Below are positions 3,747 to 42,387 of a stretch of DNA of 56,841 bases, piece by piece. A program made the position numbers and the translations under genes. Source of the stretch: a virus (taxonomy: Duplodnaviria; Caudoviricetes). The stretch spans positions 1 through 56,841 of the IMG/VR virus record IMGVR_UViG_3300049811_000087. One strand, 5' to 3'. Within the stretch, counting starts at the first letter, position 1; each line of letters starts with the position of its first letter. The notes beneath the pieces are model-generated. The model was not told the DNA's origin and searched no databases. It saw nothing but the letters and a program-made list of their open reading frames with translations.

Positions 3747-4591
3747 TTTTAGATACAATAGACAAGTCGCTGCGAGTTCGGACCGCCGCTGTACATACAA
3801 CTTCTCCACTTCGGTGCGTCTGCTCTTGGCGAGAGGTTAGCCCTACGGAATTCTCTCCAGGGAACACTCTCCAGTCTACAAACGGAACAACACCAGTCGA
3901 GGTTGCTACCGCTCCCGCGCTGAACAAGCAGAAGGTCATTGACTATCTGAATGTTTTAAATACTGATACCGTTACACACACGGTAACTGTGTCCATTCAT
4001 AACGGCTCAACCAATTTCAACTTAGCCACCATTACTCTTGGGGTTAATGAACGGTTGGAGTACACCGACCAAAGTGGATTCAACACCTACAATGCGGCTG
4101 GGGCTTTGAAGTCTATCGTTACAGCAACGCAGAATGTTAAAGATACTGGGTGGTCTACGGTTGTTCTAGGAGCAGATGTCGTTAACAATAATGCCGTGGC
4201 AAACACTATTGCCGATATTACTGGGTTACAGTTTCCTGTCGTAGCGGACACTAGATACTGGTTTGAGTTTTTCATTGCCTGGGCATCTGCCGTAAACACT
4301 ACTGGAGCACGATTTTCTATCCATGGCCCCACTTTTACGCAGCTTATTTACCGCTCAGAGTACTCTTTGTCGGCGACTACTAGAACCATAAATGACGGCC
4401 TCAGTGCCTATGACTTACCCAGCGGAGCTAATGCGACTCCAGCCAATTTGGGCGGTAACATCGCTATTATCGAAGGGTTTATAAAACCTTCAGCTGATGG
4501 CGACCTTCGAGGTAGGTTTGCTTCTGAAATTGCAAACTCAGCAGTAACAGTTCGAGCAGGTTCAATGGTGAGATATCAGGCGGTGATCTAA
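3740..4591 (+). CDS. Putative minor tail / receptor-binding protein
   Basis: Beta-rich; DITGLQFPVVADTRYWFE pattern typical of fibre-tip domains; context. Confidence 0.5.
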   Translation: MLILDTIDKSLRVRTAAVHTTSPLRCVCSWREVSPTEFSPGNTLQSTNGTTPVEVATAPALNKQKVIDYLNVLNTDTVTHTVTVSIHNGSTNFNLATITLGVNERLEYTDQSGFNTYNAAGALKSIVTATQNVKDTGWSTVVLGADVVNNNAVANTIADITGLQFPVVADTRYWFEFFIAWASAVNTTGARFSIHGPTFTQLIYRSEYSLSATTRTINDGLSAYDLPSGANATPANLGGNIAIIEGFIKPSADGDLRGRFASEIANSAVTVRAGSMVRYQAVI

Positions 4592-6472
4592 ATGACTTGT
4601 CTGTTTCGTTGGAATGGTTTAACTTCCATAATTAACAACATAGCTGTTCCGGGAGACACGCAGGGTTTTGGGGACATTGGTTCTCCCGTAGCAAATTCAT
4701 TTATTTTCCCAAATAGTTTAGGCCCCCGACTCGTTCTAAAAAACGGATTTCACCCTAATCGAACTGCGCATGTCGTTCTAGAGGGTAACGATTATGCCTT
4801 AGGAAATGACACCTTTTATTGGGCGATTCCGCCGACACCAAAACCTGGAGTTACTCCTACACCAGCACACACAGGCCCATGGTCTTTAAGTATGATTTTC
4901 TGTATTCCTACACCAACTTTTAACTTAAATTTTCTGAGTTTTAGGAATGCCGGAGTCGAAAACATTACCTTTGCGAGACTTATATTCGCAAATAGAATTA
5001 CAAGAACGACTAGTCCTGCGGTTACTACTATGCCGTCGGCGACCGACTGGTATCGTTTGGAAATTCAAGCCGACCCTAACCGAACAGCTTCTTTAGTTTG
5101 GCGCCTCTATGTGGCCGACGCCCTAACCCCCATAGGGGGGCACTCTGAAACGGGGGTTACTGTTTCTTGGGATGAACTTCGGTTGGGATATCTTAACTCG
5201 GGTTTTACTACAATTCGAGCCACATTTGGCGAAATAGAAGTTCATGACGACTACGATTTAGGCGGTCGGTTTAGATCATCCCCAAAAGATGGGGTTACCC
5301 CAGCATCAACAACCGCCGAAGGGGTCCCTTTGCTCCCACCGATTATTCCTGCTCGGTACAGGTATAATGCAGCAACAAACAGGACTTTGTCTCGAACAAA
5401 CCCTAGTTACACAACGCACTCTAACGTTTCATATGCAACCGTCCCGGCAAACTATGGGCGTCGATATGATCTTTATATTCCGAACGACGGCGAACCCCCT
5501 CCTGGTGGATACCCCGTTTTGATGTGGGGGCATCCAGGCTTCTTCTCAGAAGGAAGTAAACTGGATATTCCTTTGGAATGGCTAAAAGAGATGATTGCCG
5601 CGAGAATTGCAGTCTGTTCGGTTCAATATGTTAAGACGGCAATCGAACTTGGTGGTAGTTATTTAAGTTACGGGACAAATGATAAGTATGGTCGATATCC
5701 TTCGTTTATACACGACTACAAGTTAGCAACTGTAGACCTCAAGGCTAAAGCTTCAACTCTTAGTGGCGGAAACAATACCTATAATGTAAATGGTAACAAA
5801 ATTATAGCTTGTGGGTTTTCCGCGGGAGGATATGTGGCCCTTGCTGCGGCAATGACTAAAAACCTTGATGAGGATTCTGCGGGAACTAAAATGAGTTTAG
5901 CTGGCGCCACAGCAGCCGGATTACCTTGGGGCGGTGGGTACACAGGCGCAGATCCTGACTATTTAGGCGCCATGGTCTTTGCGGCGCCAATCGACATGGA
6001 TATCTCTCGGAACTGGGATCCGACCCATCCAAACTCAGGGTCACTCATTAGACTCGTGGGCTATCGTGGGTTTCAAGCGTTAATTACGAACGGATCGGAT
6101 TCTTCATTATACCCAAGACAATCGATTGCTTCTCATATTGAAAGAAATTCTTTAAGCAATCTTTGTCCCGTGGCGTATATCGAAGGTTCTTCGGATTTTT
6201 TAGTTCATTGGGAACACCAAGAGCTTCTTGCTAACGCTCTTACCAGTAAAGGCGTAGATTATACCCGAATTTTAACACCAAACAACCATAATCATGGGAA
6301 TGACATTTTTGACATAGAGGAACAGCTAGTGTGGTTAAACTCTATACTCTACCCTAGCTCAGGCCCAGAATCTAAAACTCTGTTTTTCTCTTCCGGAACG
6401 ACAGAAACAGGGGTCTCTACAGAGTTCTATGACGGAACCGAAAACATATCCAAAGACCTCTCGAAGATTTAA
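4592..6472 (+). CDS. Virion-associated alpha/beta-hydrolase (esterase/lipase) with N-terminal beta-sandwich domain
   Basis: YDLYIP...PVLMWGHPGFF oxyanion region, GFSAGG nucleophile elbow, GSSDFLV acid, HNH His; lies among fibre genes. Confidence 0.7.
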   Translation: MTCLFRWNGLTSIINNIAVPGDTQGFGDIGSPVANSFIFPNSLGPRLVLKNGFHPNRTAHVVLEGNDYALGNDTFYWAIPPTPKPGVTPTPAHTGPWSLSMIFCIPTPTFNLNFLSFRNAGVENITFARLIFANRITRTTSPAVTTMPSATDWYRLEIQADPNRTASLVWRLYVADALTPIGGHSETGVTVSWDELRLGYLNSGFTTIRATFGEIEVHDDYDLGGRFRSSPKDGVTPASTTAEGVPLLPPIIPARYRYNAATNRTLSRTNPSYTTHSNVSYATVPANYGRRYDLYIPNDGEPPPGGYPVLMWGHPGFFSEGSKLDIPLEWLKEMIAARIAVCSVQYVKTAIELGGSYLSYGTNDKYGRYPSFIHDYKLATVDLKAKASTLSGGNNTYNVNGNKIIACGFSAGGYVALAAAMTKNLDEDSAGTKMSLAGATAAGLPWGGGYTGADPDYLGAMVFAAPIDMDISRNWDPTHPNSGSLIRLVGYRGFQALITNGSDSSLYPRQSIASHIERNSLSNLCPVAYIEGSSDFLVHWEHQELLANALTSKGVDYTRILTPNNHNHGNDIFDIEEQLVWLNSILYPSSGPESKTLFFSSGTTETGVSTEFYDGTENISKDLSKI

Positions 6473-6481
6473 GGAGAACCT

Positions 6482-6715
6482 ATGGCCGAAGTTAGAGTTT
6501 TTAATTATGAGCGGATGAAAGAGCTTGAAGATAAAGCAGTTGTTTCTGCATATATAGAAGAAGCGGCTGATTCAGCTCGAAATCTTATTTTAGTAACAAA
6601 TAATGGCACTTTGATTAATGTCGGTAACGTCGGTGGAACAGGTGGCGTTGTTGTCGTCCCTCCCGATGGAGACCAAAGTGGTATTCTTACGTCACACTTT
6701 CAGGAGGTTGTCTAA
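6482..6715 (+). CDS. Small virion protein, paralogue of the N-terminus of 19804..20439
   Basis: VRVFNYERMKELED...LILV...NVGNV resembles VRVFTYDRMKAIED...LILV...NLGSV. Confidence 0.6.
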   Translation: MAEVRVFNYERMKELEDKAVVSAYIEEAADSARNLILVTNNGTLINVGNVGGTGGVVVVPPDGDQSGILTSHFQEVV

Positions 6716-7821
6716 TGCCCAACGTTATTCCACCAAACAATGTAGCAGCTGGTGATCCAAATCACGTACTCTACCATAATAACATTTCCGACGTTTTGAC
6801 CGCCCACGTCGAAAGAATGGATGCGTATGAGGCAACTATTCCGACTATGCGTGGATATTTGAACCAAGTAGAGGATCTTCCTACTAACGGGTCCTTCGGC
6901 GACATGTATGTTGTCGGGGAGGATATGGCTCTCTACTATTGGGGAGTCACGCAGTCAAGCCCAACACCAGCTTGGCGATACTCGGGAACCATTCGAGGGG
7001 AACAGGGCCCTGCTGGGCCTTCCGGATCTATTGTCGGTGTTCTTGAGTACGGAGAAAACCCACCTCCTGGTACACCGGCAAACACGCTTTGGTTTGTTGC
7101 TGAGCAGTCTGCCGTATTACCTGGTCCCGATTTGACCCCAGTGTTGGTTGGGTCTTCCGCGCACGTCAACCACGCGACATCGTCTGTTCTTAGTGTTAGT
7201 GGCGCTGGAATCAACACTCAGGCTGGCGACGTTGCTGTTCTTTGTGTCGTGCACGCTTCAAGTGCAGTCATTGCTACGCCATCAAACTGGGAGAATCCTA
7301 CGGCTCTCAACGCCGCATACACTCGAGCTATCGATGGTAACACTACAGCAACTATATTTACTAGGGTTTGCCCCGACGCAATGGGTAACGTCAACATCGT
7401 TGCTGGTGAGAAGCACAGTTGCTCTTTGATGGTGTTTCGAAATGTTGATTTGGCTGCTGGAGGATTGGCCCACAACATTAATTCGATAATCACTACGACC
7501 GACTCGGCGACCCGAGCCGCCCCAACGCTTACCCCCACGGTTGACTCTATTGTTTGTGGATTCTACTTTGATCGCTATGGTCCATCACAGACGGTTCCTT
7601 TGGCGGCTAGCGTAGCTCAGCCAGCAGTCTTTACGAAAGCAGCATCAGGCGGCGTTAACCAGAGCGGAAGCTCGAGTATCGTCTCGTCACAGGGCGGTTA
7701 CGACTTGACCGTGGCCAAAGACGCTGCTCGCCCAGCTGGTACGCAAAACTGGGTCAAGACTGGCCCCGTTGGAACCCAGCTTGGCGCATTCACATTGGCT
7801 CTTGCTAAGAAGACTGGGTGA
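6715..7821 (+). CDS. Minor tail protein
   Basis: DLPTNGSFGDMYVVG, GTIRGEQGPAGP collagen linker, PPPGTPANTLW, C-terminal beta domain. Confidence 0.65.
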   Translation: MPNVIPPNNVAAGDPNHVLYHNNISDVLTAHVERMDAYEATIPTMRGYLNQVEDLPTNGSFGDMYVVGEDMALYYWGVTQSSPTPAWRYSGTIRGEQGPAGPSGSIVGVLEYGENPPPGTPANTLWFVAEQSAVLPGPDLTPVLVGSSAHVNHATSSVLSVSGAGINTQAGDVAVLCVVHASSAVIATPSNWENPTALNAAYTRAIDGNTTATIFTRVCPDAMGNVNIVAGEKHSCSLMVFRNVDLAAGGLAHNINSIITTTDSATRAAPTLTPTVDSIVCGFYFDRYGPSQTVPLAASVAQPAVFTKAASGGVNQSGSSSIVSSQGGYDLTVAKDAARPAGTQNWVKTGPVGTQLGAFTLALAKKTG

Positions 7822-29764: not shown

Positions 29765-29926
29765 ATGAAAAAGGTTTCTGTTTATGAGTATAAAGGAGAA
29801 GCGTTTGTAATGGCAAACTCTAAGAATTACGGGTGCCTTCATTTTATCGGAGACGTTTTGCTCACTCTGCTGACTGGAGGTCTTTGGTTGATCTGGATTT
29901 TTGTTAGGGAGATGCGGCGTAGATGA
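29765..29926 (+). CDS. Small membrane protein (53 aa; not in ORF track)
   Basis: GGAGG RBS; ...FIGDVLLTLLTGGLWLIWIFVREMRRR; ATGA overlap with next gene. Confidence 0.7.
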   Translation: MKKVSVYEYKGEAFVMANSKNYGCLHFIGDVLLTLLTGGLWLIWIFVREMRRR

Positions 29927-30666
29927 TAAAAAACTACATTCGGCAAGCAAACAAGTACGCCTCTAAAAACGCCCCGGCGCTTATGACGGTCGTTGGCGTT
30001 GCTGGAGTCATCACAACAGCCTTTCTTTCGGCTAGTGCGTCGTTCAAGGCTGTGCGGGTAATTGATGCCGCAAAAGAAGAAAACGAGCCATCAGAAGAAC
30101 CGCTTGAACGACTCAAGGAAAACACAAAGCTGGTCTGGAAGCTTTATATTCCGCCAGTTACAACGGGTCTTGTCACAATCGGGGCGATTGCGTACGCACA
30201 TAAGCTCGGTTCAAAGAGAACTGCAGCAGCTATTAGTGCGTATACCATCACAGAACGAGCCTTTGCCGAGTATCGAAATAAGGTCGTTGAAGAAATTGGT
30301 TCGCACCGGGAACAAGTTGTTCGAGACGATATTGCTCGTGATGAAGTATCAAAGAAGTCATCTAACCAGATTATTCTGGCTGGGTCCGGCGAAGTAATGT
30401 GCTGTGAGTTGTACACCCGCAGATATTTCATGTCTGACATGGAGACACTCAGAAAAGCACAGAACGACATCAACAATAGGGCGATGCACGATCTTTATGT
30501 GACTCTTGACGAGTTTTACAATATCGTGAACCTTCCTAGTACCGCTCATTCTGGCGAATTGGGGTGGGATTCAGACCGCCTCATGGATCTGGAATTCTCA
30601 ACCGTTCTTTCCGAAGACGGGCGTCCATGTCTAGCGTTCAATTACAATTACATCAAACCCATTTAA
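29923..30666 (+). CDS. DUF6353-like protein
   Basis: NAPALMTVVGVAGV..TA..S...WKLYIP...Y...E..F.EYR...LDEFY...GW. Confidence 0.65.
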   Translation: MIKNYIRQANKYASKNAPALMTVVGVAGVITTAFLSASASFKAVRVIDAAKEENEPSEEPLERLKENTKLVWKLYIPPVTTGLVTIGAIAYAHKLGSKRTAAAISAYTITERAFAEYRNKVVEEIGSHREQVVRDDIARDEVSKKSSNQIILAGSGEVMCCELYTRRYFMSDMETLRKAQNDINNRAMHDLYVTLDEFYNIVNLPSTAHSGELGWDSDRLMDLEFSTVLSEDGRPCLAFNYNYIKPI

Positions 30667-31282: not shown

Positions 31283-31883
31283 TAGTCATAAGAAGAAGGA
31301 AGCAGAAACTTCTTCTCCGCCAGAAAAAAAGATTGAGCGACTTGAGCTCGAGAGCAAAGTTGTTTCTAGGAAGAAGCCCATTGGAGCTCGGGTAAAGTCA
31401 GTTTTCTTTGGCGGTGAGTTCGACTCTGCAGTTCGGTATATTGGCGCTGAAGTCTTACTTCCAGCGTTTCGAAACCTTTTGGTTGACGCAACCACCAAAG
31501 GTATCGAGCGTATGGTTTACGGGGAATCCAACTACCCAAGGCAGCGTACGCCCGAGTATCGTCCTCGAGTGACCTACAATAGCCCAATTAACCGAGGACC
31601 TCGAGCCAACATTCCAGACCAGCCAAGTCGCCCACAACGAGCTAGGCACGATGACACGGAAATCGTCTTCGGGTCTCGAGGAGATGCCGAGCTTGTTCTC
31701 GATCGCATGCAGGACATCATCGAACAGTACGTGGTTGCTTCTATGGGCGACCTAAACGAGATCGTTGGTCTGCCCACCTCGCCTATTGATAATAAGTGGG
31801 GCTGGGATAACGTTCGACATGCTGAAATTCGACAGACTCGGGATGGGTTCATACTCAATCTCCCGCCAGCACAACCAATCTAA
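31266..31883 (+). CDS. Conserved hypothetical phage protein
   Basis: MDYQGNSH after AAGGA RBS; ...DNKWGW...LNLPPAQPI. Confidence 0.7.
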   Translation: MDYQGNSHKKKEAETSSPPEKKIERLELESKVVSRKKPIGARVKSVFFGGEFDSAVRYIGAEVLLPAFRNLLVDATTKGIERMVYGESNYPRQRTPEYRPRVTYNSPINRGPRANIPDQPSRPQRARHDDTEIVFGSRGDAELVLDRMQDIIEQYVVASMGDLNEIVGLPTSPIDNKWGWDNVRHAEIRQTRDGFILNLPPAQPI

Positions 31884-31896
31884 CCGGAGGACTACT

Positions 31897-32790
31897 ATGA
31901 GATTTGTTCCTAATAAATTGACGAGAAGTATAAACCGCACCATCCTCAAGTCAAAGAAGAATTCGCCCACGTTTTTCTTTGCTGCGGGGGTCGTTGGAGT
32001 TATTGGTGGAACAGCTCTTGCTTGTCGAGCCACGCTTCAGCTTCCCGAAGCTCTTGATGATTTTCAGGAGGAGGTGAATGAGGTCAAGGACATGGGTGAG
32101 AGTCGGGTGGCAAATGATGCCGACACTTACAACGAGCGAGAGTTCTACCGTGATATGCTTTACGTTTACGGCAAGCACAGCATGGGTATCGCGAAGCTGT
32201 ACGCCCCGTCCCTTGCCGTTGGAGCTATTTCTATTGCTTCGTTGACCGGCTCGCATATTACGCTGCAGCGTAGAAACGCCTCACTTACAGCCGCCTTCAC
32301 CGGCGTTGCGACCGCATACGAAGAGTATCGGAAGCGTGTGCAAAAAGAGTTGGGTGCTGAGCATGAACTCGATATTTACCATGCTGCCGAAAACCGTGTT
32401 ATCACTAATTCCGACAACACCAAAGACGTAGCCAAGATTGTAGACCCGAACAAGTGGTCTGCATACGCTAGGATATTTGATGAGAGCTCTCCCTATTGGG
32501 AAAAGAGTCCTCATATTAATCGTCTTTATGTTCAGGCAGCACAGAACTACTTTAACAACAAGCTGCAGGTCCGAGGACACGTGTTTCTTAACGAGGTCTA
32601 CGATCACTTTGGGTTTGAACACACTCAGGCTGGTTCTGTTGTCGGGTGGATCTTAGGTCACGACGGAGACAACTTCATTGATTTCGGCATATTTGATGCC
32701 TACAATTCGGAGTTTGTAAATGGGCTAGAGCGGTCCATTGTCCTTGATTTCAATGTGGACGGCATCATATTTGATAAACTGGAGTCCTGA
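31897..32790 (+). CDS. DUF6353-like protein (paralogue of 29923..30666)
   Basis: KNSP..FFAAGVVGV...ACRAT...YEEYRKRV...HVFLNEVYD...VGW...LDFNVDG. Confidence 0.65.
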   Translation: MRFVPNKLTRSINRTILKSKKNSPTFFFAAGVVGVIGGTALACRATLQLPEALDDFQEEVNEVKDMGESRVANDADTYNEREFYRDMLYVYGKHSMGIAKLYAPSLAVGAISIASLTGSHITLQRRNASLTAAFTGVATAYEEYRKRVQKELGAEHELDIYHAAENRVITNSDNTKDVAKIVDPNKWSAYARIFDESSPYWEKSPHINRLYVQAAQNYFNNKLQVRGHVFLNEVYDHFGFEHTQAGSVVGWILGHDGDNFIDFGIFDAYNSEFVNGLERSIVLDFNVDGIIFDKLES

Positions 32791-38916: not shown

Positions 38917-39083
38917 TGTGGCCTATGGTTATCGGAGCCCTCTTATTTGCTATCGGCGTTTTGTTTGGCTTCGGAATCTCGCACGCTTCTTTCAAGTTGA
39001 TTCTTGAAGGCGACGAATCTCCGTTTGACGATTACAACCGATCTTATTCATCTATAAAGGAAAAGGAACACAATGCAGTTTGA
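38916..39083 (+). CDS. Small membrane protein (55 aa; not in ORF track)
   Basis: GGAGG RBS, TGATG overlap; MWPMVIGALLFAIGVLFGFGI. Confidence 0.55.
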   Translation: MWPMVIGALLFAIGVLFGFGISHASFKLILEGDESPFDDYNRSYSSIKEKEHNAV

Positions 39084-39333
39084 TACTTATGCCCGTAAGC
39101 CGTTCGTTGTGGAGGCCGTGGAGATCACGGAGGAGAACATCGAGCAGGTTGCTGAGTTTGTCGGTACTGTCCGAAAGAAGGATGACGGAACGTCGTTCAT
39201 TCAGGTCGACCGTCGCCTTATCCCCAACGTCTACCGAGTTTACCCTGGGTTCTTCATGACGAAGATGGGCGATAACGTTCGTTGCTACTCTCCCAAGATC
39301 TTCAGGGATCAGTTCGAGTTGATTGAAAGCTGA
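39073..39333 (+). CDS. Hypothetical protein
   Basis: Y.RKPFVVEAVEIT...F...FE pattern of small phage beta proteins. Confidence 0.65.
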   Translation: MQFDTYARKPFVVEAVEITEENIEQVAEFVGTVRKKDDGTSFIQVDRRLIPNVYRVYPGFFMTKMGDNVRCYSPKIFRDQFELIES

Positions 39334-39351: not shown

Positions 39352-39546
39352 ATGAAGATCAAGAGTCCTGAACAGTTGGTTATTGGTGATGTTATTCCTA
39401 ACTGGGGAGCCGATCTGGTTGTTAAACACACAGCGCCGGAGCCTCTGGGGTATGACATTCCTCTTAGTATTCGGGTTGAGTTTGAAAGCGGCAGGTATGC
39501 CAATTACCCTGTAGGAACTGCAATCCGAGTTGTAGATAAAGGGTAA
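39352..39546 (+). CDS. Hypothetical protein
   Basis: AAGGAG RBS; LVIGDVI SH3-like start. Confidence 0.55.
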   Translation: MKIKSPEQLVIGDVIPNWGADLVVKHTAPEPLGYDIPLSIRVEFESGRYANYPVGTAIRVVDKG

Positions 39547-39554
39547 CAAAATCT

Positions 39555-39575
39555 ACAACGCCTATAATGAAGAGA
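39555..39575 (+). promoter_or_regulatory. Conserved phage promoter-like motif, copy 3 (heads accessory/tRNA operon)
   Basis: TAACA-N6-ACAACGCCTATAATGAAGAGA. Confidence 0.8.
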
Positions 39576-39634
39576 AAGGCGATATCGAATGATATTACCT
39601 GTGGATTCCCATCCACACCTCTTCTTTTATTTTT
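39569..39634 (+). ncRNA. Structured leader / small RNA (three-way junction plus U-tract)
   Basis: GAAGAG/CTCTTC closes GGCGATATC/GATATTACC and TGTGGAT/ATCCACA hairpins, then TTTTATTTTT. Confidence 0.55.
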
Positions 39635-39651
39635 CCATGAAAGGATTAAGA

Positions 39652-39864
39652 ATGACATTAACTTCTAAGGTTGGCAAGTTCATTTTTGCTGACCACTGTG
39701 AGCTGTCCAAAGCTAAGCTGATTCGGGATACCGTGATGGGGCAAATCCTGAATCCGCCCGAGGGCAGTCAAAGGCTTCCGAGAGATGAAAAGGCTATTTT
39801 CACTTTCGTAGCCAGTGCATTCAAAAAGGACGCTCCCAAGCGGGAGGCCATCGTCCTTTCATGA
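39652..39864 (+). CDS. Hypothetical protein
   Basis: AAAGGA RBS before ATG 39652. Confidence 0.55.
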   Translation: MTLTSKVGKFIFADHCELSKAKLIRDTVMGQILNPPEGSQRLPRDEKAIFTFVASAFKKDAPKREAIVLS

Positions 39865-40265
39865 TCGTTTCAGGGCGCTACAACCTTTCGCCAAGAGTTG
39901 TACAGTCCGCAGCGGAACGCCCCCAGCACCCCTGGTCGGACCGCCCTGTGACTTTGATCAAACAGTGCCTTTGTTCATGGCCTTGTGTCGGTAAAGACCA
40001 CGTAGTGTATTTTTCCTCTCCCGGCTTGGATACACGTGTACCTCGTAAAAATCTGGTGACTTGATCCTTTACGATGATGACACTATACGTCCGTGGTTGC
40101 CTTAACTCGCAGTCTGGTGGAGTCTGTAGTGACGATCGATGAGTTCCTCTCGTCATGGTACCTTTTAAATCGTCGAGTCATTCGGCGGGCCAGATTGTTA
40201 TTTCGCCTCTGTAGGGCGTCTCTCACCCAGGCTGAGCATCCTGGGGTATATCAAAACTGCTCCAC
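39865..40265 (+). ncRNA. Candidate ~400-nt structured non-coding RNA with pseudoknots
   Basis: No RBS-supported ORF; many nested helices and two pseudoknot pairings read by eye (see findings). Confidence 0.5.
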
Positions 40266-40308
40266 TTCGCTCAAAAAAATTCACCATTTAATAATAGGAG
40301 AAATACTA

Positions 40309-40524
40309 ATGGACCGCGTTTTTGTTATCATTGAAGTTCTATACAAGAATGGTGGCGACTGGCCTCACGACTCCGACAGGGTTCAGTATGGGCCATTTAT
40401 GACTGGTGCAGATGCTATGGAGTTCTACATTGAAGGTGTTAAGATGGGTAAATTCTACCCAAATCATTTTTTGACGCGAAGAGTCAACCCACCGTCTTAT
40501 GCCCCTACTTACCAGGAGAGTTAA
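40309..40524 (+). CDS. Hypothetical protein
   Basis: AGGAG RBS before ATG 40309. Confidence 0.6.
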   Translation: MDRVFVIIEVLYKNGGDWPHDSDRVQYGPFMTGADAMEFYIEGVKMGKFYPNHFLTRRVNPPSYAPTYQES

Positions 40525-40808
40525 TGAGCATTTTTGTTGATGAACCAAAAGTCGTGCCGTTTTCTGACGAAGAGACGTCTACTGACAAGACCGAAGCTGC
40601 TCATATTGTCAAAACGGAGGGTAATGAAGACGCGACAGCTAAAGTCCTTGAAGCCCGTATTCACGGACTCGTTTTGGAAGCCTTGTGTGGATATCGATGG
40701 ATACCTTCACGAGATCCGAAGCAACTCCCGGTATGTGAAGAATGCAAAGAGATATACGAGACATACAAGATGTTCAACGACGGACTGAACGAAAGACCTA
40801 GTGTATGA
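40524..40808 (+). CDS. DUF3039 family protein (actinobacterial, Zn-binding)
   Basis: HIVK...ALCG..WIPSRDP...PVCEECKEIYE. Confidence 0.75.
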   Translation: MSIFVDEPKVVPFSDEETSTDKTEAAHIVKTEGNEDATAKVLEARIHGLVLEALCGYRWIPSRDPKQLPVCEECKEIYETYKMFNDGLNERPSV

Positions 40809-41050
40809 AGATTATCATTAACTCGCCTGCTGAAAACCCGGGATACGCAACTTCCATAAATACTGGAGCAATGCAAATCACAGTGCTCGAGTGTTTTAGC
40901 GGGGTCAGGTTTATTACTAAAGATGGTGAAATTATGACTATATCTATGCGAGACTCTGGTTTTGAAGGAACCTATCAAGATGCACCTGGGTCTCCTGTTC
41001 ATGAATTCGAGTACAAAAATGGAGAACACGTTGGTAAGTTTATTAATTAG
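40805..41050 (+). CDS. Hypothetical protein
   Basis: ATGA overlap. Confidence 0.55.
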   Translation: MKIIINSPAENPGYATSINTGAMQITVLECFSGVRFITKDGEIMTISMRDSGFEGTYQDAPGSPVHEFEYKNGEHVGKFIN

Positions 41051-41069
41051 GAAACAATAAGTTACTGTT

Positions 41070-41258
41070 ATGAGTGCTAGAATTCCAAAAGAACTAACCG
41101 TTCGAGTTTACGACAAAGACGGAAATCTTGTAGAAAAAACAACAAGTCGAGCTATTAGCACACCAAAAGGAATTGGTAGGCTTTTAATGAGCGAAGGCAT
41201 AAAAGCAGTTGAAGTACATCATGTTGACGGCACATCGACTGAATTTTCGATAAAGTAA
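41070..41258 (+). CDS. Hypothetical protein
   Basis: ORF fills gap in operon. Confidence 0.45.
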   Translation: MSARIPKELTVRVYDKDGNLVEKTTSRAISTPKGIGRLLMSEGIKAVEVHHVDGTSTEFSIK

Positions 41259-41286
41259 ATAACTCTTTTTAACAACAGGAGGATAA

Positions 41287-41607
41287 ATGAGTAAAGCAAA
41301 CCTTATTTTAACCAGTATCATCGGAGTTCTCCTTTGTGTTGGTGTCATTATCGGAGGCTGGCAGCTTGGCTGGTGGCTCAAGAGCGAGACTGTAAATCGC
41401 AATGCTGTGATCTTGCAGGACTCGTACGGACGTCAGAACGCTCTCGTTGAGGGTATTCTTGACGATGTCCGTGAAACTGAGATGGGTAATCTTCCGCCTC
41501 AGCAGGTTGTTGCCATCACAAGCCAGATCTGTGATTCAGCAGCAAAGCTCAGTGGTTCCATTCAACTGCCGCCAAACGCGGCTTCATTTGTAGCGAGGGA
41601 ATGTTAA
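41287..41607 (+). CDS. Membrane protein
   Basis: AGGAGG RBS; N-terminal TM; C-terminal Cys pair. Confidence 0.65.
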   Translation: MSKANLILTSIIGVLLCVGVIIGGWQLGWWLKSETVNRNAVILQDSYGRQNALVEGILDDVRETEMGNLPPQQVVAITSQICDSAAKLSGSIQLPPNAASFVAREC

Positions 41608-41608
41608 T

Positions 41609-42169
41609 ATGAAGAAGACAATGGTTATGATTCTGGTTGCACTCAGCCTTGTAGCTGTGGGTTGTACCGGAGCAGAAGACAACGCGACGGAGAAGGATAA
41701 TCGGACTGCTCAGGATCAGTTGACGCAGTTCCAGCAGGCTCAGCCTGTTCCAGTGTTCAGTCAGTCTCAGCTTCGGCAAAACCTGATTGATATTGCAACC
41801 GCGCAGGCAGAGGCTACGGCAACTACGTCGTTCTTTTTCAATCAGGGCATCATTGATCCGATTCATAGTTGCCCAAGCGTTGGGTTTCCAATTCCAGGAA
41901 CGTTCCAGCTCACCAACCCAGAAGGAGCAGTTCGAATCGGGGGAGTAGACTCGACTCGATACGTTCTTCCTCAGCTTGAGTCAACTGGTGTTTACAGTGG
42001 CGAAACTACTGGCACAACCGTTATCTGCATCGACGAGAATGGTAAGGGCTACGCGCACTGGTGGGAGGGGTTTGTCTCTACCGTTGCTGGCCCCGCCACT
42101 TGGAATGCAGAAGCCAAGCAAATTGATATGACCGGGTCTCCTACTGCGGAATTTGATACTGGTAAGTAG
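41609..42169 (+). CDS. Lipoprotein
   Basis: MKK + hydrophobic stretch + LVAVGC lipobox. Confidence 0.7.
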   Translation: MKKTMVMILVALSLVAVGCTGAEDNATEKDNRTAQDQLTQFQQAQPVPVFSQSQLRQNLIDIATAQAEATATTSFFFNQGIIDPIHSCPSVGFPIPGTFQLTNPEGAVRIGGVDSTRYVLPQLESTGVYSGETTGTTVICIDENGKGYAHWWEGFVSTVAGPATWNAEAKQIDMTGSPTAEFDTGK

Positions 42170-42240
42170 TAACAATTTTCCTCTGACCCGGAGGAAACTG
42201 GTACTGAATCGCTTGGTCCTGGATCCCAAGTTTACATTCA

Positions 42241-42313: not shown

Positions 42314-42387
42314 GCTCCTCTAGCTCAATTGGTTAGAGCAACGGACTTTTAATCCGAAGGTTCTGGGTTCAAGTCCCAGGGGGAGCA
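42314..42387 (+). tRNA. tRNA-Lys(UUU)
   Basis: GCTCCTC/GGGGAGC acceptor, GCTC/GAGC D stem, CTTTTAA anticodon loop, GTTCAAGT T loop; CCA not encoded. Confidence 0.9.

Follow-up and report, generated by a model that had tools for sequence, protein, structure and literature searches.

Three separately conserved RNA modules in an intercistronic gap of an actinophage-like virus, and the occurrence of two of them in pistol ribozyme arms of its relatives

The gap between replication genes and small genes

The DNA analysed here, referred to as the window, is the whole 56,841-base record of virus IMGVR_UViG_3300049811_000087 (estimated completeness 95%), a nearly complete genome of an actinophage-like siphovirus with almost all of its genes on the plus strand. 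Its layout, as read from Pfam and PHROGs, has genes for lysis and structure as far as ~31 kb; a replication block occupies 31.7-39.5 kb, and some fifty tiny open reading frames (ORFs) together with three transfer RNAs (tRNAs) follow downstream. The replication block encodes a 1244-amino-acid (aa) primase/polymerase, a single-stranded DNA (ssDNA)-binding-type protein (PF24083; 38437-38913) and a conserved 86-aa protein (39073-39330). At the border between this block and the small-gene array lies a gap of 444 nucleotides (nt) at 39865-40308, the largest of the window once two spurious ORFs are discounted (the runner-up measures 177 nt). Comparison with related phage contigs shows the gap to be a plus-strand, non-coding intercistronic leader composed of three separately inherited modules, D1, D2 and D3, and of non-conserved spacer. 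Their substitution patterns show the modules to be structured RNAs under selection, part of a modular RNA locus that the lineage keeps at the same position.

An initial annotation of 39865-40265, made from the sequence alone, had described a single ~400-nt multi-domain non-coding RNA with two pseudoknots. Every pair of complementary segments that it named is present at its coordinates, and compensatory changes in relatives, found in D1, D2 and D3 alike once homologues were collected, bear out the description of a non-coding, plus-strand structured RNA. The unity of that RNA did not survive the comparison. We collected viral loci (numbered L below) through the ssDNA-binding-type protein, whose gene lies 1.3 kb upstream of the gap region, and used the best 80 of 440. 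Searched against these by blastn, the gap fell into three separate conserved blocks, 39865-39958, 39979-40107 and 40199-40303. In L003, which contains all three, D1 and D2 stand 330 nt apart and D2 abuts D3. L012 also contains all three, at spacings of 570 nt and 190 nt, and between its blocks lie a 39-aa membrane peptide and an ORF of ~50 aa, each with its own ribosome-binding site (RBS). D1 and D3 occur without D2 in L005, and D2 occurs alone in L027; in L080 and L089, D1 and D3 are 1.2 kb and 0.7 kb apart. Where modules co-occur their order is constant, D1-D2-D3 in the window, L003 and L012 and D1-D3 in L005, L080 and L089. Since genes lie between the modules in relatives, they do not form one 400-nt RNA; by this comparison the gap is a set of three separately conserved, autonomous folded modules.

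Folding energy by itself gives no support for structure, and the support comes from the related phage contigs. The minimum free energy (MFE) of the gap, -125 kcal/mol, is reached by 24 of 100 dinucleotide shuffles (z -0.56); the minus strand is no different (z -0.46). The MFE fold includes the helices of domains 1 and 2 (our D1 and D2) and the 3' hairpin, and leaves the RBS region before the gene at 40309 unpaired. GC skew is negative within the gap, opposite to the flanking genes, with an excess of C.

Structure and conservation of the modules

D1 comprises the following elements.

39871-39948, plus strand: D1, three-way-junction RNA (covariance model R1, covariation)
39871-77 CAGGGCG with 39942-48 CGCCCTG, plus strand: P1 of D1 (complementarity, covariation)
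39879-84 TACAAC with 39897-902 GTTGTA, plus strand: P2 of D1 (complementarity, covariation)
39905-09 GTCCG with 39937-41 CGGAC, plus strand: P3 of D1, with an inner CAG/CTG and a C-rich loop

The module starts 7 nt past the upstream stop codon in the window and 4 nt past it in L080. The covariance model R1, built from five sequences, yielded 27 matches, of which 22 are distinct; each lies on the gene strand and in the same syntenic position. In their alignment 96.4% of cells are paired and both sides have changed in 18 of 24 pairs, figures inflated by the relatedness of the sequences and by the fitting of the alignment to the model; the pairing score was reached by 0 of 500 shuffles, and no slid register came close. 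Compensatory change is visible even by eye (TACAAC/GTTGTA versus TAAGAC/GTCTTA), and covariation backs all three helices proposed for domain 1. G.U outnumbers A.C in the pairs by 27 to 2, which fixes the transcribed strand. The junction has very short joining strands and strongly conserved base pairs around it. The outer arms vary, and the bases left unpaired in them are rich in C (33-38%, versus 17-21% G; 26 C-rich versus 3 G-rich 4-mers).

Five genomes checked carried at most one copy of D1 each, with matches in two of them; L009 and L017 carry two copies each. A strict D1 pattern had no match in genome contigs. A loose pattern had at least 119 viral and at least 120 genome matches, nearly all of them due to chance; R1 kept 8 in the first 100 of the viral loci, 4 of these on new contigs (L143, L187 and two in L192), and none in 80 genome loci and 19 further viral loci. 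No D1 was found in the bacterial genome loci examined. A tRNA-like reading of D1, as a 7-bp stem stacked on a 5-bp stem, was rejected, given the absence of a T-loop and of an ARAGORN match.

D2 is larger and built from several helices.

39976-40104, plus strand: D2, multi-helix RNA (model R2, covariation)
~39977-81 with 40099-103, plus strand: closing stem of D2, weak
39996-40002 GACCACG with 40092-98 CGTGGTT, plus strand: helix of D2 (covariation)
40005-10 GTGTAT with 40030-35 ATACAC, plus strand: hairpin of D2 with a CU-rich loop (40011-29)
40035-40 CGTGTA with 40084-89 TATACG, plus strand: helix of D2, weak support
40043-49 TCGTAAA with 40068-74 TTTACGA, plus strand: hairpin of D2 (covariation)
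CTTGTGTCGGTAAAGA, plus strand: conserved strand of D2
TGATGACAC, plus strand: conserved strand of D2
39985-89 GTGTC with 40079-83 GACAC, plus strand: candidate internal pseudoknot of D2, invariant in all sequences

Across all collections searched, R2 recovered four distinct D2 sequences (the window, L012=L093, L003=L002 and L027). In the curated structure 94% of cells are paired and 12 of 31 pairs show compensatory change, a result equalled by 0 of 500 shuffles; with the extra helix CGTGTA/TATACG, 14 of 36 pairs do so. Three of the four helices proposed for domain 2 are thus strongly backed by covariation. The fourth, CGTGTA/TATACG, is backed weakly, with a G-C pair in the window, A-U in L003 and an A.C mismatch in L012. 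Among relatives the closing stem changes from UAAGGC/GCCUUA to GCUGGC/GCCAGC. Two strands, CUUGUGUCGGUAAAGA and UGAUGACAC, are invariant and could form a five-pair pseudoknot, GUGUC/GACAC, itself invariant in the four sequences. All four sequences retain, despite the changes in their stems, a CCUCUCC-like motif in the CU-rich loop; it is complementary to the ribosome-binding sites of AGGAG type found in this genome. Exact-pattern scans for D2 gave 9 metagenome and 6 genome matches (for the genome scan an estimated ~8 chance matches are expected), and the only real one was L093, identical to L012. Hammerhead, kink-turn and C/D-box readings of a conserved D2 TGATGA were set aside, the arrangement misfitting by eye and the Rfam match being a chance one of 13.8 bits.

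The first of the two pseudoknots proposed initially joins the loop of the TCGTAAA hairpin to two segments of the spacer.

40173-80 TCGAGTCA and 40190-96 CCAGATT, plus strand, spacer: partners in the first pseudoknot

It is not supported. Loop and partner are both unconserved, the partner region is absent from all relatives, and the duplex is not above chance. The duplex of 40046-68 with 40173-96 (-18.9 kcal/mol) was equalled by 40 of 2000 shuffled targets, and 13 of 1195 other segments of the genome were as good; the strongest long-range duplex anywhere in the gap (-23.3) was equalled in 68 of 100 shuffled gaps.

The second pseudoknot belongs to D3.

40204-40262, plus strand: D3, hairpin followed by an H-type pseudoknot (model R3, covariation)
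40204-07 CGCC with 40215-18 GGCG, plus strand: first hairpin of D3
40226-31 CCCAGG with 40240-45 CCTGGG, plus strand: stem of D3, paired in 6/6 sequences
40234-38 GAGCA (loop) with 40258-62 TGCTC, plus strand: pseudoknot of D3 across an A-rich linker, paired in 6/6 sequences

R3 recovered six distinct D3 sequences (E <= 2.3e-10). The stem shows two compensatory pairs among the six. The pseudoknot shows one, in L080, where GAGCA/UGCUC has become GGGCA/UGCCC (A-U to G-C), and the first hairpin has changed in a compensatory manner there as well. The second pseudoknot and its hairpin are therefore supported by covariation in relatives, by few independent events. In five of the six D3 loci an A-rich open stretch follows, and then a Shine-Dalgarno (SD) sequence and a start codon 20-45 nt on; the genes behind D3 are mutually unrelated in these five loci, and L003 has none.

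The remaining features of the gap and its borders are as follows.

39589-39864, plus strand: upstream ORF, 91 aa from 39589 (likelier starts 39637 or 39652; no Pfam or PHROG match)
39949-39975, plus strand: short linker between D1 and D2, not conserved (comparison with relatives)
40105-40203, plus strand: spacer with local hairpins, specific to the window, 0 matches in any relative
40263-40311, plus strand: A-rich, unstructured leader, then RBS AGGAG (40296-40300) before ATG 40309
40309-40524, plus strand: downstream gene, 71 aa, start ATG 40309

The 3' end of the upstream ORF contains a hairpin (~39828-39857) followed by a U-rich run. No promoter or terminator was predicted on the plus strand inside the gap. 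The small flanking proteins (39652-39861 and 40309-40521) gave pattern matches in viral contigs, none of which was confirmed as a relative.

The statement in the initial annotation that no RBS-supported ORF lies here is nearly right, the frames not being conserved, and needs two caveats. The ORF at 39861-40064 begins in an ATGA overlap with the upstream stop codon and has GGGAGG 13 nt upstream. GTG 40129, preceded by GGAG at a distance of 6 nt, shares the frame of the gene at 40309, and 60 codons stay open through D3 (40129-40308). This start probably arose by chance. It stands in the spacer, which is unique to the window phage, and reading from it would traverse D3, which is conserved as RNA before other genes. 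The gap ORFs (39861-40064, 40093-40524 and, on the minus strand, 39878-40156) had no family match in Pfam or PHROGs. In relatives the frames are not kept, the loops carrying indels of 1, 2, 6 and 8 nt, and the weak peptide similarities track nucleotide identity. For annotation, the gap is best marked as structured RNA and not as ORFs.

That the element can be assigned to no family was confirmed by the Rfam scan, which gave no match in the gap. At gathering thresholds the whole window yielded three tRNAs only (4227 models), and around the gap (39500-40700) a search at E <= 10 gave four chance-level matches with E of 1 to 10. ARAGORN found neither a tRNA nor a transfer-messenger RNA within the gap. 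A blastn search of the gap region against 50,697 phage records gave 0 matches. The closest cultured relative by polymerase is Gordonia phage Petito (59.8% identity of the window polymerase to Petito and similar actinophages), and its genes are tightly packed at the corresponding place.

Pistol ribozymes at the same locus in relatives

Pistol ribozymes (RF02679) scored 35-55 bits, above the Rfam gathering score of 34.5 bits, in 19 of 22 related loci scanned. According to the published description, which also records their association with phages, pistols have a P1 hairpin, a pseudoknot between its loop and the P2-P3 junction, the helix P2 and a GU junction of 2 nt that holds the cleavage site (PMC4604425). 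In L007, L009, L011, L015, L017, L019, L020 and L023, P1, the pseudoknot strand and the 5' half of P2 lead directly into D1; downstream of D1, two junction bases precede the 3' half of P2, behind which stands a conserved hairpin. P1 of D1 is the pistol P3 in these eight loci and in L018, and the closing stem of D2 is P3 in the L027 pistol. Among 16 distinct pistols parsed, L027 lying outside this set, four have a plain P3 hairpin of 12-14 nt, nine a D1-type junction of 82-115 nt and three other two-hairpin inserts (60-74 nt, in L024, L025 and L080). The Rfam model aligns just the 5' half of the D1-type pistols, and the P2 pairs covary across the insert by eye (GGCA/UGCC, GGUC/GAAC, GGAU/AUAC and GGUU/AAUC). 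Published cleavage falls in the two-base P3-P2 junction (PMC4604425), which places the predicted cut precisely on the 3' boundary of D1 or D2. The D1-type expanded pistols were found at the following positions, and also in L015, L019, L020 and L023.

L007, 4277-4435: D1-type expanded pistol
L009, 4376-4520: D1-type expanded pistol
L011, 3367-3525: D1-type expanded pistol
L017, 6671-6820: D1-type expanded pistol
L018, 7050-7226: D1-type expanded pistol

The window itself has no pistol, neither at the gathering score in its whole length nor at E <= 10 around the gap, and no degenerate pistol was found in its spacer. The expanded P3 arms of the pistols that relatives carry at this locus, on the same strand and just after a gene, are homologous to D1 and D2. 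The two modules correspond to the P3 stem-loop of the pistol, a homology of its peripheral part only; in contrast to a pistol, the window lacks P1, the pseudoknot, P2 and the GU junction. D1 of the window is preceded by the 3' end of an ORF, which contains a different hairpin, and is followed by no P2 partner; a CGU just before D1 is the sole remnant resembling the pistol strand before P3. D1 and D2 are thus peripheral inserts and not catalytic parts, and free-standing D1 is independently selected. D1 occurs without any pistol in the window, L004, L022 and L089, and in the plain-P3 loci L003, L005 and L012 a free-standing D1 lies just upstream of the pistol. Among 14 distinct free-standing D1 sequences, 14 of 24 pairs still show compensatory change, indicative of selection outside the ribozyme too. 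Antitermination by D1 in the manner of put RNAs was set aside: such RNAs must remain bound to the polymerase, and the pistol cut falls immediately behind D1. Structured phage RNAs and ribozyme-associated motifs are known; the new feature is conserved domains that serve in some loci as the arm of a ribozyme and in others stand on their own as a leader element.

Further conserved RNA surrounds these elements. A hairpin, CUGUGAAGGNNACACAG, stands directly after the pistol cut site in 18 loci and is absent from the window. Behind it runs a conserved, highly structured non-coding RNA of 230-300 nt, which continues into D2 in L003 and L012 and which the window also lacks.

L003, 6176-6420: structured RNA after the pistol cut site (no Rfam match)
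L012, 6557-6850: structured RNA after the pistol cut site (no Rfam match)
L005, 3640-3870: structured RNA after the pistol cut site (no Rfam match)

A conserved, branched, terminator-like element, consisting of two hairpins within a GAGAG...CUCUC stem and of a U-run behind it, was seen just before free-standing D1 in L005 and L024 and in three further loci.

L009, ~4000-4066: GAGAG...CUCUC element upstream of free-standing D1
L017, ~5885-5948: GAGAG...CUCUC element upstream of free-standing D1
L012, ~6125-6190: GAGAG...CUCUC element upstream of free-standing D1

Cultured phages carry pistols too. Matches to the pistol half of L017 occur in 12 records of cultured actinophages, in gaps left unannotated, and in three of these records, listed here as L345 to L347, a pistol was confirmed above the gathering score (44-51 bits).

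L345, 2500-2778: pistol region of Curtobacterium phage Pippin15
L346, 2005-2417: pistol region of Gordonia phage Austin
L347, 2000-2146: pistol region of Microbacterium phage Count

All three pistols start at most 10 nt from the upstream stop codon and are followed by a further 70-330 nt of non-coding sequence. R1 and R3 had no match in these three phages or in Petito. The literature searched yielded no report either of pistols in actinophages or of pistols whose P3 arm is expanded.

Possible roles of the modules

Compact folds at the ends of messages are a known concept, as in the 5' stem-loop stabilisers of Gram-positive messenger RNAs, the viral exoribonuclease-resistant RNAs (xrRNAs) and the synthetic RiboJ insulator. 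The modules resemble these by architecture only: in D3, as in 5' stabilisers, a stem-loop whose loop pairs with downstream sequence is followed by an open leader and an RBS, and the pistol of relatives with its following hairpin shares the layout of the ribozyme insulator; they differ in that there is no sequence or model match. We tentatively favour, as a possible reading of the comparative data, a cis-acting intercistronic cassette for punctuation, processing and stability. Such a cassette would punctuate the long polycistronic transcript and set the stability of its two halves. D1 and D2 would serve as compact, nuclease-resistant end structures, and the D3 pseudoknot, the open A-rich leader and the free RBS would together protect the downstream message near its 5' end and load ribosomes onto it. 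In relatives, the ribozyme cut just 3' of D1 would leave a 5'-OH and the conserved hairpin on the downstream RNA; in the window phage, host RNases would have to make the cut. A role for ribozymes in dividing polycistronic transcripts into parts of differing stability has been proposed (PMC6765202).

Several observations weigh against the cassette. The window carries no ribozyme, so that a cut there is purely conjectural, and the fold of the gap is no stabler than shuffles. D2 and D3 are known from four and six related sequences, respectively, and the D1 alignment was a fitted one. Free-standing D1 is preceded in about six loci by a branched hairpin and a U-run resembling a terminator, and stands 2-24 nt before an SD sequence and start codon in 5 of 13 cases; D1 would thus be sometimes the head of a message and sometimes its tail. 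Moreover, the conservation of the D1 junction exceeds what a mere roadblock needs, and a specific partner, be it protein, RNA or ligand, fits better.

Such a partner features in a somewhat unlikely alternative, in which D1, D2 or both would be trans-acting small RNAs or decoys whose C- and CU-rich loops pair with Shine-Dalgarno sequences or sequester a host or phage protein; the pistol would free them with a defined 3' end in relatives, and host RNases would do so in the window phage. The C excess of the gap, the C-rich composition of the unpaired D1 arms, the CCUCUCC-like loop motif of D2 and the strongly conserved D1 junction are all in line with this, as is the occurrence of modules nested in P3, free, before a gene and after a gene. 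The C-rich loops vary in sequence and length, however, and G-poor loops are partly expected in any folded RNA. Less likely still, by analogy, D3 with or without D1 might be a cis translational operator or riboswitch-like sensor of the downstream gene, answering to a single-strand-binding (SSB)-type protein or a ligand. In the gene 32 leader of phage T4, a pseudoknot 5' of an unstructured A/U-rich leader up to the RBS nucleates the single-strand-binding protein. D3 likewise places an H-type pseudoknot, with an A-rich third loop, 5' of an unstructured A-rich tract that runs to an RBS in five of six loci, and an SSB-type gene (PF24083) lies upstream of the gap. Unlike that leader, D3 precedes unrelated small genes and not an SSB-type gene; that the genes after D3 are unrelated in five loci and missing in L003 argues against a gene-specific sensor. 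Nor does D3 fall into a pseudoknot riboswitch class, no riboswitch or leader model of Rfam having matched the gap at E <= 10.

The single multi-domain RNA of ~400 nt with two pseudoknots, in the manner of the large ornate phage RNAs, is quite unlikely. It would account for the constant order of D1, D2 and D3, for the abutting D2 and D3 of L003 and for the lack of a predicted plus-strand promoter or terminator inside the gap, and the duplex of the D2 loop with 40173/40190, taken alone, beats 98% of shuffled targets. Against it, the modules of L012 and L080 are separated by RBS-bearing ORFs and a ribozyme, D2 is missing from L005 and sits alone inside the pistol of L027, and the spacer with the first pseudoknot is unconserved; the strongest long-range duplex of the gap is matched in 68 of 100 shuffled gaps, so that this duplex is an ordinary one once the choice of segments is allowed for. 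GOLLD and ROOL, to which the initial annotation had turned for comparison, are likewise phage-borne and structured, and the locus between replication and tRNA genes is a further likeness, as is the tRNA-Lys 140 nt after D3 in L003. The gap differs in consisting of separable modules of 60-130 nt, not one fold of 500-800 nt, and the scan of all 4227 Rfam models gave no similarity to either family; the nearest tRNA of the window is 2 kb downstream of the gap. Least probable of all is that the gap does not act as RNA: it would then either code for protein, as 39861-40064 or as an N-terminal addition to the 40309 gene beginning at GTG 40129, or work at the DNA level, for example as a replication origin. 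Open frames, the ATGA overlap and the GGAG before GTG 40129 would suit the former, and the position just after the primase/polymerase and SSB-type genes the latter. Yet the frames are broken in relatives by loop indels, peptide similarity follows nucleotide identity and the ORFs match no family, and the compensatory pairs, together with the 27:2 ratio of G.U to A.C, point to transcription of one strand only. Repeats typical of origins were not noticed, though no search was aimed at them.

Beside the cassette reading we consider a bolder proposal, doubtful as it stands, that D1 and D2 are autonomous functional RNAs and interchangeable cargo, either free-standing or carried in P3 of a pistol that cuts at their 3' edge. 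If so, actinophage pistols would be natural processing cassettes that deliver or cap the modules (as nuclease-proof caps, anti-Shine-Dalgarno RNAs or protein decoys), and the ribozyme-less window would show that the cargo, and not cleavage, is the selected function. A review (PMC6765202) describes the biological role of the pistol and of most genomic self-cleaving ribozymes as still open. Here, a phage lineage has the variable arm of a ribozyme replaced by conserved, covarying domains, and the same domains persist where the ribozyme is missing. Three RNA motifs absent from Rfam 15, in a natural series with and without the ribozyme, are testable objects for asking what purpose ribozyme cleavage serves in phage transcripts, and Pippin15, Austin and Count, with their unannotated pistols, offer laboratory systems.

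Further observations concern other parts of the window. By Rfam and ARAGORN its tRNAs lie at 42314, 44322 and 45699 only. The segment 42179-42391, a hairpin with tRNA-Lys, has its homologue in L003 at 6608-6816, directly continuing from D3 there; in the window, therefore, D3 and the tRNA are separated by additional small genes amounting to ~1.9 kb (40309-42170). Paralogous DUF6353 proteins are encoded at 29923-30663 and 31765-32787 (E 1.7e-68 and 2.3e-59), and the region that they flank, with the only minus-strand ORF candidates of the window and several gaps, may be a regulatory or early-promoter region.

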